This document shows, piece after piece, positions 1-4,125 of a stretch of 32,000 nucleotides of DNA. Each line of letters begins with the position of its first letter. Position 1 is the stretch's first letter. Position numbers and translations under genes: made by a program. Source of the DNA: Bermanella sp. WJH001 (GTDB lineage Bacteria; Pseudomonadota; Gammaproteobacteria; Pseudomonadales; Oceanobacteraceae); assembly GCF_030070105.2 (NCBI RefSeq), contig NZ_CP194951.1:965511-997510 (forward strand), read 5' to 3'. The notes under the pieces were generated by a model that was not told the DNA's origin, ran no database searches, and saw only the letters and a list, made by a program, of their open reading frames with translations.

Positions 1-176
1 GCTCAGGACAGGCTCAACCCGCGCTCAGGGTGATCGGGTTTCTTTGATTACTGAAGGCAAGACCTACGCAGTCGCCCCTATGTTTTTAGGTTGCGGGCGC
101 GAAGCGCAGTCAATCCTCCTGTCAGTTGTGGCAGTCTTCTTAGTTTGTAATGCGCACCCTTGCTAGCTACTAAGTT

Positions 177-268
177 TTCCGCAAGTGCGTTTCTAGTTCA
201 CTGTTAATTTTTGAAGCCTTTACAATCAGGATAATTAAAGCCAGCACGGTTCTTTTTCTCGGGGTTGC
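177..268 (+). repeat. Truncated copy (A0) of a ~230-nt dispersed structured repeat family
   Basis: Shares the CGCAAGTGCG core (180-189) and the AGCACGGTTCTTT...GGGGTTGC block (241-268) with copies A1-A4. It stops where copy A1 starts. Confidence 0.6.
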
Positions 269-277
269 TTTAATCGT

Positions 278-510
278 CTTACCCGCGAAGGCGGGTATCC
301 ATTTTCGCAAGTGCGTTTTATGAATGTTGCTGAGTATGTGAGTAGTTTCAAGATTTATCACCTTTGCTAGCACGGTTTTCTTTCTTGGGGTTGCACCCCA
401 ACCCCCGCTTCGCGCCTAACTATCCACCGCCAACTTCATATATTCTCGAAAGGCTTGGGTGATGCGGTGGATAAAGGGCGCAGGTTGGTATCGCTACAGG
501 TTTGACTTGC
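278..510 (+). repeat. Copy A1 of the ~230-nt structured repeat family
   Basis: Hairpin TACCCGC-GAAG-GCGGGTA (280-297), then TCCATTT and core CGCAAGTGCG (306-315). TTGCTAGCACGGTT block, then hairpin TTGGGGT-TGC-ACCCCAA (385-401). Long bipartite stem GCGCC-TAAC-TATCCACCGC (412-430) pairs with GCGGTGGATA-AAG-GGCGC (464-481). Near-identical to A3. Confidence 0.8.
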
Positions 511-549
511 TGTTGGTTTTGCCAAGGTTTTGCGTGTGGTTTAAATGTA

Positions 550-790
550 AGTGGCTGCAGCGTGTTCGCAAGTGCGTTTTATGGGTGTTGCTGAGTATTT
601 GAATAGCTTCAAGATTCAACGCTTTTGCTTGCACGGTTCTTTCTTTGGGGCTGCCTAAAAAGAAATTGCCCAACCCCCTCTTCGCTCATACTTCACACCG
701 CTCGGTCTCATATATTAATAAGACGCTTTGGTTGTAGTGGTGTTCAGAAATCGCATTGTGTTATCGATACATGTTTGGTTCTCGATAAAA
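550..790 (+). repeat. Copy A2 (diverged) of the structured repeat family
   Basis: Core CGCAAGTGCG at 567-576 and TTGCTTGCACGGTT block. The GGGG hairpin carries a loop insertion. Stem ACACCGCT (695-702) pairs with AGTGGTGT (736-743). The 3' tail CGCATTGTGTTATCGATAC is shared with A3 and A4. Confidence 0.75.
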
Positions 791-816
791 TTGATAGGGT
801 TTGTGCTTGTTATAAA

Positions 817-850
817 ATTGTAGAAGGCCGCACCTGCGGCCGAATTGTAG
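817..850. repeat. Miniature palindromic insertion flanked by a 7-bp direct duplication
   Basis: ATTGTAG-AA-GGCCGCA-CC-TGCGGCC-GA-ATTGTAG: a 7-bp-stem GC-rich hairpin bracketed by identical ATTGTAG heptamers (817-823 and 844-850). This looks like a target-site duplication. Confidence 0.5.
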
Positions 851-1161
851 TTACTACTGGGAATAATGTAGGAGGGTGTTTGCACGCGACAAGGGCTCAG
901 AGGCTAAACAACAAAAGTTTAAAATGATTTTGTCATACTCGACGTGAGGCACGAACAGATCGTGTATCCATAAAATCCCCTTAGTTTGTATGAATCAAAA
1001 TAGTGAATAAGAAATGACTTTATGAAAAAGAACCACGAAAATATTTAAAGCAAAGATAGGCTTGGTTGATCTAGTGGTATTTGCTTACCATGGGTGTTTA
1101 GATTAGTTTTATTGTTTACGGCTTGATTTCCGTAGGCTTTGCAAGAGTGTTGCTTATCTAG

Positions 1162-1400
1162 TCTTACCCGCGAAGGTGGGTATCCATTTCCGCAAGTGCG
1201 ATTTATGAATGTTGCTGAGTATTTGAATAGCTTTAAGATTCAACGCTTTTGCTAGCACGGTTTTCTTTCTTGGGGTTGCACCCCAACCCCCGCTTCGCGC
1301 CTAACTATCCACGGCAGGCATCTTATATATCTAATTAGGCTTTGGTTGTTGCCGCGGATAAATGGCGCATTGTGTTATCGTTTCGGGCTTGGTTTACTGT
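1162..1400 (+). repeat. Copy A3 of the structured repeat family
   Basis: Hairpin TACCCGC-GAAG-GTGGGTA (1165-1182), core CGCAAGTGCG (1191-1200), GGGGT/ACCCC hairpin. Stem GCGCC-TAAC-TATCCACGGCA (1297-1316) pairs with TGCCGCGGATA-AAT-GGCGC (1350-1368). Confidence 0.8.
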
Positions 1401-1467
1401 AGGTTCAAAATCGACTTTGTAATTCACTTATATTTATTGGTGCAATAGATGTAGGTTGTAGATAATG

Positions 1468-1504
1468 AGCTTTAGTACCTTGCAAGGTACTAAAGCTTGC
1501 AAGG
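1468..1504. promoter_or_regulatory. Perfect 30-bp palindrome plus an extra half-site; candidate operator or hairpin at the 5' end of the orphan gene
   Basis: AGCTTTAGTACCTTG|CAAGGTACTAAAGCT (1468-1497) is a perfect inverted repeat with no spacer. The self-complementary octamer CTTGCAAG occurs twice (1479-1486 and 1495-1502), 16 bp apart, just before the ATG at 1509. Confidence 0.55.
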
Positions 1505-1508
1505 TCTT

Positions 1509-2429
1509 ATGATTAAAATGTTAGAGGGCTCCATGAAAATCAATAGTGATCTGATGGTTGATATTAATGAAGAGCTTAGTAAAAGTAATATTGAGCATAG
1601 CTTTAGGCCTCTTCGGGCAATCGCATTAGCTTCAGATAAATTAGGAATTAGCATTTCTATTCCTTCAGCTGAGGCAGACTTTATATTCCGGTGGTATGAA
1701 TTTAATGGAAAACCAGGCAGCCAGTTACAAGGCCATTTTCACCAAGGCTTATATTACTTTGATTCTGAGTTTTGGTCTGTAAGCATTCCACTTATTTATG
1801 GGCAAATTGAAGTTAATTCATTGGAAGCTCTCCATAATATGCCCTCCAATACCAAGGCATCACTTACTAAAAACAATAAAACTCTATGGGATTACGTTAT
1901 CTATTGGGCAGATTGCATTGATTTTGGGTATGCCTATGATGACCTTCGTAAAAGTAAAGAATTTGATACGTTTGGGATTAACCTGTTAAACGCAGGTTAC
2001 GAAGAATTATCATCAGCAACATCCCTATTACTGGAATCTAGACCAAATAAACGAGCAATAATGAATTGTAGGATGGCCACGGAGATGCTGTTAAAGAGTT
2101 TTATTTGCTTAAAAGAAGGGCTGTCGGAGACGCAGGCGAAAAAATTAGGTCATGATCTATCAAAGCTGCTAGATAAATTTATTGATTGTTCCGGTTATGA
2201 TCATCTTAAAAAAATAAAGCCGCTCCTATCAGTGTTTCCTAGTATTCATGAGCGCTATAGCGAACAAACAGCTACACACGCAAAGATATTTGATGCATAT
2301 TGTTTTGCACAATCTATTGGTGCATTAATTGCGAGAGAGTTTACCGATAGAGATACTTTGTCCCAAATAATGCCCTCTAACAATCATATGCAGCCACCAT
2401 TATTATTGCGCCAGTTAACGCGGCGTTAG
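1509..2429 (+). CDS. Hypothetical protein (orphan, visibly AT-rich); the C-terminal helical part has a weak HEPN-like appearance
   Basis: Long uninterrupted ORF (track 1497-2429). ATG at 1509 is preferred because the TTG at 1497 lies inside the palindrome. I recognise no family. The segment RMATEMLLKSFICLKEGLSETQAKKLGHDLSKLL resembles HEPN helices, but the canonical R-x4-6-H motif is not evident. Confidence 0.55.
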   Translation: MIKMLEGSMKINSDLMVDINEELSKSNIEHSFRPLRAIALASDKLGISISIPSAEADFIFRWYEFNGKPGSQLQGHFHQGLYYFDSEFWSVSIPLIYGQIEVNSLEALHNMPSNTKASLTKNNKTLWDYVIYWADCIDFGYAYDDLRKSKEFDTFGINLLNAGYEELSSATSLLLESRPNKRAIMNCRMATEMLLKSFICLKEGLSETQAKKLGHDLSKLLDKFIDCSGYDHLKKIKPLLSVFPSIHERYSEQTATHAKIFDAYCFAQSIGALIAREFTDRDTLSQIMPSNNHMQPPLLLRQLTRR

Positions 2430-2435
2430 TTTCAC

Positions 2436-2724
2436 TCAATAAACCGCAAACCAAATCCGTATCGATAACAACATGCGATTTCAGAGCACCGCTACAACCA
2501 AAGTGTTTTGATATACCCATAAGAGACGAGCGGTGTGATGTATGAGCAAAGAGGGGGGTGGGGATACTTCCCCACAAGAAAAAACCGTGCTAGCAAAGTC
2601 TGCGAATCTTGCGACCATTTAAATAATTCAACATGTCTAAACAACGCACTTGCGTTAAAAAAAGTCTCAAAATTCAAACGAGAAATGGATTCCGGTTTGC
2701 TCGTTCCTCGCAACCGGAATGACG
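2436..2724 (-). repeat. Copy A4 (inverted orientation, diverged) of the structured repeat family
   Basis: The reverse complement carries hairpin ATTCCGGTT-N14-AACCGGAAT (2689-2720) followed by CCATTTC. Core CGCAAGTGCG is at 2645-2654 on the minus strand, with a TTGCTAGCACGGTT block. Hairpin GTGGGGA-N4-TCCCCAC (2558-2575). Stem CACCGCT/AGCGGTG, and tail CGCATGTTGTTATCGATAC matching A2. Confidence 0.75.
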
Positions 2725-2777
2725 GCATAATTGACATGTTTAAATTGTTGACAGTAATACTTAAGCCCCTGCATCCT

Positions 2778-2864
2778 GTCTAACGTCTAACGTCTAACGT
2801 CTAACGTCTAACGTCTAACGTCTAACGTCTAACGTCTAACGTCTAACGTCTAACGTCTAACGTC
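2778..2864. repeat. Heptanucleotide microsatellite (GTCTAAC) x ~12.4
   Basis: Perfect tandem reiteration of GTCTAAC from 2778 to 2864 with no interruptions. It runs directly into the stop codon of the minus-strand maf/yceF gene (stop at 2863-2865). Confidence 0.97.
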
Positions 2865-3441
2865 AAATCACATTCACCCCAAATTCATCCAACATTTTAA
2901 TAAGCTGAATCAACGGCAAACCAATTAAGGTATTCGGATCATTACCTTCTAAACGCTCAAACAAACTAATGCCTAAACCTTCCGATTTAAAGCTACCTGC
3001 GCAGTTATACGGCTCTTCTTTTTTAAGGTAGTTCTCAATTTCGCTATCCGTTAGTTGGCGGAAGTAAACGTAGAAGGGTTCAACAGTTTCTTGGTATTGA
3101 TTGGTGCCGGCATTAAACACACATAGGCTGGTATAAAATGTGACGGTGCGACCGCTGGCATTTCTTAATTGCGCAAATGCGTTTTCAAAGTCACCGGGTT
3201 TGCCAATGATTTGCCCGTCGAGCGTGGCGCATTGGTCGGATGCAATGATAATGGATTGCGGGTGACGTTCAGCAATGGCTTGTGCCTTGGCTTTGGCTAG
3301 GCGTGCCACCATGTCTTTAGGGTGTTCACCCTTTAGTGGGGTTTCGTCGATATCTGGGCTGTCGCAGTCAAAGCTTAAATCGAGCTTTTCTAACAGGGCT
3401 TTACGGTAAGGTGAGCTTGAACCTAAAACTAAACGGGCCAT
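2863..3441 (-). CDS. yceF: Maf-like nucleoside triphosphate pyrophosphatase, YceF subfamily
   Basis: LVLGSSSPYRKALLEKL...DETP, IIASDQ...LDGQIIGKP and CAGSFKSEGLGISLFERLEGNDPNTLIGLPL are collinear with E. coli YceF as I remember it. Confidence 0.92.
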   Translation of the reverse strand: MARLVLGSSSPYRKALLEKLDLSFDCDSPDIDETPLKGEHPKDMVARLAKAKAQAIAERHPQSIIIASDQCATLDGQIIGKPGDFENAFAQLRNASGRTVTFYTSLCVFNAGTNQYQETVEPFYVYFRQLTDSEIENYLKKEEPYNCAGSFKSEGLGISLFERLEGNDPNTLIGLPLIQLIKMLDEFGVNVI

Positions 3442-3490
3442 ATTTATCTGCCAAATTACAAAATTTGGCTAAGTGTACGGGATTTTGGGC

Positions 3491-3516
3491 AAAAAAAAAC
3501 AGGCCGTAAGGCCTGT
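3491..3516 (-). terminator. Rho-independent terminator of sodB
   Basis: On the minus strand: ACAGGCC-TTAC-GGCCTGT followed by a T9 run (A-run 3491-3499 on the plus strand), 25 nt after the sodB stop. Confidence 0.85.
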
Positions 3517-3540
3517 TCTTATTTTAGACTGGGGTCTAAA

Positions 3541-4125
3541 TTACTTAGCGAAGTTTTCGTTCGCGAAGTCCCAGTTTACTAGCGCCCAGAAACCTTTTAG
3601 GTAATCAGGACGTACGTTGCGGTAATCAATGTAGTAAGCGTGTTCCCATAGATCAACTGTGATCAAAGGTGTTACGCCATCTTCAGTGATTGGAGTCGCT
3701 GCGTTAGAAGTGTTAACGATGGCTAAAGAGCCGTCAGCGTTTTTCACTAACCAAGTCCAGCTAGAACCGAAGTTGTTCACTGCTGAATCGTTGAATTTAG
3801 CTTGGAATTCTTCGAAAGAACCAAAAGCAGCATTGATTGCATCAGCAACTGCGCCAGTAGGAGCACCGCCGCCGTTAGGGCTTAGGCTGTTCCAGTAAAA
3901 AGTGTGGTTCCAGATTTGAGCAGCGTTGTTGAAAATACCACCAGAAGAGGTTTTAACGATTTCTTCTAGAGACTTGCTCGCAAGCTCAGTACCTTCTACT
4001 AGGCCGTTAAGCTTAGTTACGTAGGTGTTGTGGTGTTTGCCGTGGTGAAAATCAAGGGTCTCAGCGGAGATATGTGGCTCTAAAGCATCTTTTGCATAAG
4101 GTAGTGCTGGTAGTTCGAATGCCAT
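3541..4125 (-). CDS. sodB: Iron superoxide dismutase
   Basis: [41 protein letters not shown] and [18 protein letters not shown] are hallmark Fe/Mn-SOD motifs. Size is 194 aa. Confidence 0.96.

Follow-up and report, generated by a model that had tools for sequence, protein, structure and literature searches.

What are the repeats that crowd around a single gene at the start of this stretch of Bermanella sp. WJH001 DNA, and what might they do there? The window, by which we mean the whole 32,000-nt stretch that was analysed (G000:C1:965511-997510, where G000 is Bermanella sp. WJH001, with a chromosome of 3.64 Mb and 42.7% G+C), begins with five copies of a repeat that we call the unit, numbered A0 to A4. 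We believe that the unit is best explained as a mosaic intergenic repeat, similar to bacterial interspersed mosaic elements (BIMEs), neisserial intergenic mosaic elements (NIMEs) and pneumococcal BOX, that marks slots of exchangeable cargo genes and promotes their exchange. We would put the probability of this reading at roughly 45%.

We looked for copies with nhmmer on both strands, using a profile built from the copies themselves. The five copies that an earlier note on this DNA had listed (A0 partial, A1 to A3 direct and A4 inverted) were all recovered, with E-values from 1e-16 to 1e-57. The common blocks and the stems quoted for them are in the sequence as that note gave them, and its claim of a single credible gene agrees with the open reading frame (ORF) map, where the 310-aa ORF at 1497-2429 stands alone. 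The core unit is about 210 nt long, runs from CGCAAGTGCG to GGTTTGGTTT and is non-coding. In the whole genome the profile search found 19 independent copies at eight chromosomal loci, 14 of them at the seven loci outside the window, and truncated copies are frequent. Two copies on contig C2 were left out of this count because C2 is a 100% duplicate of C1 1273529-1352502.

For the relatives we used R1, a covariance model that covers the 3' two-thirds of the unit. It matched 130 copies across 14 of 23 genus genomes; two complete genomes of the genus had no unit in this search, and zero units were found in 139 further genomes of the order (90 genera). Public records that contain a 20-mer of the repeat come from Bermanella sp., Oceaniserpentilla sp., one Oceanicoccus sp. 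metagenome-assembled genome (MAG) and one unclassified gammaproteobacterial MAG. The repeat family is restricted to the genus (Bermanella-type marine bacteria). We found no unit in a plasmid collection (distant BLAST) or in viral contigs (pattern scan), and Rfam 15 gave no match in the units (cmscan of window positions 1-4000, E <= 1), its sole match being an unrelated one at 3439-3525 with 26.6 bits. As far as these sources show, the family is undescribed.

The arrays have a consistent polarity. Units follow each other head-to-tail. With its 5' end the array lies against the 3' end of a core gene, a junction at which a repetitive extragenic palindrome (REP) is often inserted, and the 3' tail points towards variable cargo. 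When both flanks are core-gene ends, two arrays point towards one another, and A3 and A4 are the example in the window. For neighbouring units no more than 6 kb apart we counted 32 tandem, 8 convergent (3' tails inward) and 0 divergent arrangements. In G000, nine of the ten arrays lie directly downstream of a co-oriented conserved gene (read from ORF maps), and in relatives where the upstream ORF could be called, 15 arrays are co-oriented with it and 2 are not. In most arrays the cargo has a unit on just one of its sides, and two inverted pairs have only 19-21 bp between the units. The sequence immediately before the units is T-rich, with no strict target motif.

Cargo turns over at these places. 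At the window's locus, which we call the maf locus, five genomes carry five different cargos with units conserved on both sides, and at loci 0 and 6 the cargo differs among G000, G019, G021 and G022. The genes downstream of units are mutually unrelated (orphans, SLFN_AlbA_2, GmrSD with HEPN, a methyltransferase, SUFU and DUF6980), and this argues against a type III toxin-antitoxin system, in which a repeat array goes with a cognate, homologous toxin. The 310-aa ORF in the window has no match in Pfam or PADLOC, and four relatives have other genes in its place. The relative G006 lacks units and cargo together at loci 5 and 6, with homology stopping at the unit 5' edge, so the units belong to the accessory block and lie at its outer edge. 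At locus 6, in a single comparison, the empty site of G006 set against the filled site of G000 shows the junctions CACTTT|ACCC... and ...GCTAGCT|CAAG, and no target duplication.

Such edges could also mean that the units are cis-acting ends or recombination sites of cargo-carrying mobile blocks. A recombinase (HUH, tyrosine or other) would act on them in trans as structured single-stranded DNA (ssDNA) substrates. Arrays would then be scars left by repeated insertion, a convergent pair would be both ends of a single element, and inverted pairs with almost nothing between them would be its miniature derivatives. It agrees with this that the 5' edge of the unit is the edge of indels between genomes, that inverted pairs are convergent only (including the two with almost nothing between the units), and that the locus 6 insertion sits directly after a REP hairpin without target duplication, as with ssDNA 'peel-and-paste' elements. 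Strand-specific insertion beside an earlier copy would give head-to-tail arrays in a single orientation, and the genome has four Y1 genes resembling REP-associated tyrosine transposases (RAYTs) as well as an integron integrase. However, transposases are absent from all cargo, and no candidate enzyme follows the units through the genus. The unit-rich genomes G021 (18 units), G007 (20) and G001 (10) have no Y1_Tnp match at 1e-5, intI is also present in unit-free genomes, and neither Y1 nor intI correlates with units. TnpB was not found in G000. The IS91-type Y2 transposase (PF04986) is in only 3 of the 23 genus genomes, two of them without units, and is absent from G000. The missing target motif and the many arrays with a unit on one cargo side only count against mobile ends too, and subtypes that are mixed, in similar order at different loci, are unlike recent serial insertion. 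We think it unlikely that the units are mobile ends.

Three particular elements of this kind were tried and rejected. An element derived from IS200/IS605 (a palindrome-associated transposable element, PATE) should co-occur with Y1, for which the three unit-rich genomes have no match, and G000 has no TnpB. The distribution of PF04986 speaks against an IS91/ISCR rolling-circle end. A miniature inverted-repeat transposable element (MITE), e.g. ERIC or Correia, was dropped since a repeat search found inverted matches only between units and none between the ends of one unit, the blocks at the 5' side (CGCAAGTGCG...) and the 3' side (CGCATnTTGTTATCG) repeat each other directly and not in inverted form (by eye), and the one comparison at locus 6 has no target-site duplication. 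Since terminal inverted repeats, a target duplication and a transposase that correlates with it were all looked for and not found, the unit is not the end of a known insertion sequence or MITE.

The unit is built from conserved unpaired blocks with paired parts between them. In order, the blocks are CGCA[A/T]GTGCG; AATTAT.T.AAT; GCYAGCACGGTTT and then a pyrimidine run; CCCCGCTTCGC; the loop CTTATATAT...AATTAG...TTTGGTTGT; CGCATnTTGTTATCG; and GGTTTGGTTT. The paired parts are a GGGG/CCCC hairpin (hairpin 2) and a long interrupted stem, which occurs in at least three sequence types with pairing kept (Table 1); more distant relatives have a further stem, TTTCGGCCTTTA / TAAAGGCCGAAA. Loops contain insertions of 20-90 nt, some of them REP-like, and subtypes are mixed within arrays, commonly with type I first and type III last. 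The 5' block (CGCA[A/T]GTGCGTTATCG in some copies) resembles the 3' block, so that a unit has direct repeats of about 16 nt, e.g. 1191-1206 and 1368-1383, which could be a duplicated core or two putative binding sites.

RNAalifold predicted almost no structure from the raw MAFFT alignment of whole units because the stems are misaligned in it, and a blind all-against-all column scan for covariation was too noisy for the same reason. We set the pairing structure by hand and checked it on a MAFFT alignment that was made from sequence only and fitted to no structure. For the 21 copies in this alignment, 82.1% of cells pair compared with 33-47% when the partners are slid, 12 of the 23 pairs have two-sided changes (2-6 when slid), and the covariation score is 0.263 compared with at most 0.104. 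For 68 distinct copies aligned to the covariance model, 81% of cells pair (34-52% slid), 19 of the 23 pairs vary on both sides, and the score is 0.320 compared with at most 0.078. Compensatory pairing in hairpin 2 and the long stem is statistically supported, just as the earlier note had proposed from the window's copies, and a family with hairpins kept by compensatory change is not a plain duplex binding site, which the note had also argued. Covariation could arise without selection, by template-switch correction of quasi-palindromes, a process that would be strand-symmetric like the data. The hairpins may be kept by selection or by such correction.

Two other claims in that note fell. One was that a further hairpin, hairpin 1 (280-297, 1165-1182 and 2687-2722), is a unit hairpin kept by covariation. 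All three positions are outside the unit, and hairpin 1 is a separate REP-like insertion. The element GTCTTACCCGCGAAGGCGGGTATCCA stands alone at C1 1001143, 1752367, 2296942 and 2323548, and in the unit copy G1 this position holds instead a REP identical to those on the flanks of the RAYT gene Y1c. At the empty locus 6, G006 has retained the REP without the units. Because hairpin 1 occurs alone and is replaced by a REP in G1, its 'unrelated but pairing' versions are different inserted elements and not covariation.

True RAYT-type REPs thus occur directly beside units. The unit itself is neither a REP nor a BIME as defined by GTAG plus a short GC-rich palindrome, with the same sequence flanking a RAYT gene; only the small palindrome 5' of G1 has these features. 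The four RAYT-like Y1 transposase genes are at C1 503757-504353, 1648882-1649349, 1756519-1756983 and 2157280-2157873. Y1a, Y1c and Y1d are inside their own arrays of GTAG-type REPs, e.g. TGTAGGTCGGGCATTGCCCGAC every ~90 bp around the first, and Y1b has REP-like palindromes in one flank only. In the window, the spacer between A2 and A3 has a GC-rich palindrome, GGCCGCACCTGCGGCC, between ATTGTAG repeats at 817-850, and also contains TGTAGGAGGGTG. The palindrome looks like another GTAG-type REP.

The other claim that fell concerns the strand. The note had seen one-sided changes that give wobbles on the sense strand of the unit and had taken this as a sign of a transcribed RNA or a strand-specific ssDNA substrate. 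Family-wide, the non-Watson-Crick cells of the 68 distinct copies are 39 G·T and 33 A·C. This count excludes two positions at which entire subfamilies are unpaired (C·A for type I and A·C for types II and III). They become G·U when read on the minus strand, and the pyrimidine-pyrimidine pairs beside one of them become tandem G·A there (by reading), although they reflect only one or two ancestral events. The long stem of A3 has an A·C, which is a wobble on the opposite strand. The plus strand folds more stably in 30 of the 68 copies, with a mean difference of -0.2 kcal/mol, and the minimum free energy (MFE) gives modest z-scores, -0.9 on the plus and -1.5 on the minus strand. The argument from wobbles fails, and folding energy has no strand preference.

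These results bear on the possibility that the unit is a structured RNA or part of one, such as a multi-copy small RNA, an element within the 3' untranslated region (3'-UTR) of the core gene upstream, or the cargo's leader. The conserved loops would then be functional contacts and the stems a scaffold. Covarying stems beside conserved unpaired blocks are what such an RNA should have, as are loops that accept insertions, and strong co-orientation with the upstream gene and the downstream cargo is expected if the plus strand is transcribed. Several distinct subtypes are maintained side by side in arrays, and since no known family matches, the RNA would be new. Opposed to this are the even wobble count, with the two subfamily-wide positions favouring the opposite strand, the weak z-scores that prefer neither strand, and the commonness of truncated copies. 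A scan of the window's copies for sigma-70 consensus promoters and terminators found none at equivalent positions, so there is no recurrent promoter or intrinsic terminator, and the unrelated downstream genes speak against a dedicated RNA-protein pair of the type III toxin-antitoxin sort. Overall we are doubtful of a structured RNA, while taking it seriously. A conserved small peptide, as in a type I toxin, was ruled out because short ORFs on either strand vary across subtypes (by eye). Likeness to Xer/dif sites and DnaA boxes was seen by eye in some subtypes only and was dropped.

What fills the slots is in part integron material: at least two unit-flanked slots hold integron cassettes. We say so for the maf locus because of its attC cassettes and its attI-like core. 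The orthologous locus in G021 has at least four cassettes with canonical attC sites between them, the cargo of G019 has a 48-nt attC-like hairpin at its end, and the window has an orphan attI-like module (Table 1) with a core, GATTAAAATGTTA, that is also found beside the genome's integron integrase at C1 1272123. The second case is locus 2 of G000, where a GmrSD_N/NsnA-like and HEPN pair between convergent units is the first cassette beside intI in G021.

G000 has a sole integron integrase (TIGR02249, 389 bits, C1 1270854-1271795), and its surroundings, as we read them, include a LexA box and the attI core GATTAAAATG|TTATG, as well as one clear cassette that has an attC. When the 85 kb beside intI were scanned strictly for attC, no array turned up; the stretch has mostly housekeeping genes and the one clear cassette. 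A loose TAAC...GTTA scan was very noisy. Other orphan attI-like modules are at C1 308454, 404009, 1937960(-) and 3176107(-), and orthologous modules were found in G019, G021 and G009.

Altogether about nine attI-type sites stand against one integrase. Five are the orphan modules, with a -10-like CATAAT (GATAAT in the window), two to four 17-nt repeats AGCTTGCAAGGTAGTGA and the core GATTAAAATG|TTA. Beside intI (1272123) is the canonical 320-bp attI region, of which three extra copies exist, at 1352490, 1610526(-) and 2141757(-). Attachment-site hairpins resembling attC lie in the correct orientation 0.5-3.4 kb after several attI-type sites (404568, 1607163-1609249, 1936133 and 2141203). Such scattered attI platforms, with one integrase to serve them, could be a more notable finding than the repeats and may interest integron specialists more. 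Contig C2 (80,367 bp) is an exact circular permutation of C1:1271901-1352502, from the attI beside intI to another attI copy (core 1352490-1352502), and its genes are mostly of the housekeeping type. It is either an assembly artefact of a 234-320-bp repeat or a real circle excised by recombination between two attI copies.

With cassettes this close, the units might be unusually long attC-type sites themselves, or non-coding cassettes, and the region an ordinary integrase-less cassette array (attC sites in a cluster that has no integron-integrase, CALIN). The slot between A3 and A4 does have an attI-like core identical to the one beside intI, there are cassettes with attC sites at the orthologous G021 locus, and type I units contain GCCTAAC, which fits RYYYAAC. 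The anatomy is wrong, however. The unit is not one overall hairpin with R''/R' pairing at its base, no R' (GTTRRRY) is at the mirror position, and the TAAC is unpaired and missing from types II and III; on these grounds we rejected attC identity. Typical attC sites are 57-141 nt long, which ~210 nt exceeds, and those of the genus (TAACAA...GCGTTA, 50-110 nt) are unlike the units. Units also occur at loci where no attC was seen and, in all genomes compared, never in the arrays beside intI. We find this explanation barely credible.

We return to the mosaic intergenic repeat. As a descriptive class it fits what was found, namely non-coding, modular units that are head-to-tail, intergenic, hairpin-forming and restricted to a lineage. 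The units would act by folding into hairpins, whether as single-stranded DNA or within transcripts that read through from the upstream gene. They would bound foreign cargo, forming the boundary between the core gene and accessory genes, and would supply portable homology through which whole cargo blocks could be swapped by homologous recombination. Alternatively, cargo may be captured by the integrase acting in trans. The analysis shows the family itself, its covariation, its polar placement, the turnover of cargo and indels with an edge at the unit's 5' end; both the insulating and the recombination-promoting role are inferred.

Several observations weigh against this reading. The combination of conserved loops and covarying stems classically points to a functional RNA and not to a passive repeat, and classic REP and BIME stems are conserved whereas the stems here vary. 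The reading also offers no route by which copies would reach new loci, given that their distribution follows that of no transposase. The rule of no divergent pairs rests on few independent cases, since a single orthologous locus accounts for five of the eight convergent pairs, and many of the co-orientation cases are orthologous too. Units are also not needed for cassette capture, because the four other attI-like modules of G000 have none.

A bolder version is that the units are cis-acting landing pads of an undescribed cargo-capture system, or a new multi-copy structured RNA that controls such slots. Polar hairpin elements at the 3' ends of core genes would recruit accessory genes, among them integron cassettes, which would come in through the one integrase working in trans on orphan attI-like sites. 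This would give integron-like slots dispersed around the chromosome. We regard this as quite improbable. If the mosaic repeat reading is true, it adds a family backed by covariation to the short list of bacterial mosaic repeats, and ties such repeats to a genomic role at the boundary between core and exchangeable cargo, including integron cassettes far from the integrase. It would also provide a testable system in a culturable marine genus, in which the hairpin repeats may promote cassette turnover, insulate foreign genes or encode an RNA.

Table 1. Features of the repeat region (window coordinates) and sequence types of the long stem.
Feature	Position	Strand	Evidence and remarks
A0, partial unit (5' module only, profile positions 14-104)	177..267	+	nhmmer E=1.4e-16
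REP-like palindrome GTCTTACCCGCGAAGGCGGGTATCCATTTT (hairpin 1 of the earlier note), inserted at A1 5' edge	276..305	+	also alone elsewhere; same as terminator-like match 280-297
A1, full unit, stem type I (TATCCACCGC/GCGGTGGATA, outer helix GCGCC/GGCGC)	306..510 (nhmmer match 290-510)	+	E=2.9e-54; R1 152 bits
A2, full unit, stem type III, hairpin 2 loop with insertion	563..783	+	nhmmer E=3.3e-47; R1 114 bits; alignment
Second copy of the REP-like palindrome, stem with G·T, at A3 5' edge	1161..1190	+	
A3, full unit, type I, 3' G/T-rich tail towards cassette slot	1191..1412 (nhmmer match 1176-1397)	+	E=1.6e-57; R1 167 bits
Orphan attI-like module	1451..1510	+	-10-like GATAAT; 17-nt direct repeats ACCTTGCAAGGTACTAA / AGCTTGCAAGGTCTTAT forming a 30-bp palindrome; core GATTAAAATG|TTAGAG
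Cargo cassette, 310-aa orphan ORF (1497/1509-2429)	1511..2425	+	right boundary GCG|TTAGTTTC
A4, full unit, type III, inverted, 3' tail towards cassette	2426..2657 (nhmmer match 2446-2657)	-	E=5.4e-48; R1 132 bits
Different REP-like palindrome (GTCATTCCGGTT...AACCGGAATCCATTT), A4 5' edge	2683..2723	-	frame GTCAT.CC...GG.ATCCA as in hairpin 1, by eye
(GTCTAAC)12 microsatellite, between A4 and maf stop codon	2778..2864	+	probably outside the unit family
Stem type I			GCGCC-TAAC-TATCCACGGCA / TGCCGCGGATA-AAT-GGCGC
Stem type II			GCGGC...CC-TCA-CGCCAC / GTGGCG-CTC-GG...GCCGC
Stem type III			CT-TCA-CACCGCT / AGCGGTG-CTC-AG

The heptamer array in Table 1 has counterparts elsewhere. Runs of (GTCTAAC)n with at least four perfect copies (up to ~20) occur at nine loci: the window, C1 234447, 478061, 540183 and 1566676 on the plus strand, and 2802814, 2849381, 3058640 and 3429253 on the minus strand. 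All are plus in the first 1.6 Mb and minus beyond 2.8 Mb, i.e. their orientation follows the replichore. GTCTAAC agrees with RYYYAAC, and the complement, GTTAGAC, with the integron core GTTRRRY. The arrays adjoin unit loci twice, in the window and at locus 3. Imperfect 7-nt-periodic runs (GTCTCCC, GTCAGAC, GTCTCTC), reminiscent of this microsatellite, lie on the cargo side of units at two loci, at the far cargo edge of locus 0 (L054:4020-4120, C1 ~385220-385320) and after the unit tail at locus 7 (C1 ~3502450-3502500). The window has no tRNA or tmRNA.

How do the units compare with known systems? They share with structured RNAs of the Rfam type their covariation-backed helices, conserved loops and narrow taxonomic range, but Rfam gave no match to them at E <= 1, strand asymmetry and a defined transcription unit are lacking, and they occur as arrays, inverted copies and truncated copies. 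Like attC sites and the integrase-less clusters and single attC sites known as CALIN and SALIN (Cury et al. 2016, PMC4889954; Loot et al., bioRxiv 10.1101/2022.09.11.507474), they conserve structure over sequence, with a folded single strand as a plausible substrate, and the window's slot has a cassette and an attI-like core with no neighbouring integrase. Unlike attC sites, they fail the R''/L''/L'/R' anatomy, are about twice as long and are absent from arrays beside intI.

BIME or REP clusters and pneumococcal BOX are similar in that the units are intergenic, hairpin-forming, modular, tandem and mostly downstream of genes. The units differ from REPs and BIMEs in having no GTAG with a short palindrome and no correlation with RAYT genes across genomes, and in having variable stems and conserved loops, the reverse of REPs.

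NIMEs consist of RS units between dRS3 repeats at 'minimal mobile element' sites, where cargo exchange is thought to go through flanking homology. They resemble our family in being genus-restricted, non-coding, modular and head-to-tail, and in lying between conserved genes with whole-gene cargos that differ between strains. The Bermanella units have no 20-bp dRS3-like bounding inverted repeat, are longer (~210 nt) and have covarying internal helices; their placement is polar to the core gene, and at least two slots have an integron cassette as cargo.

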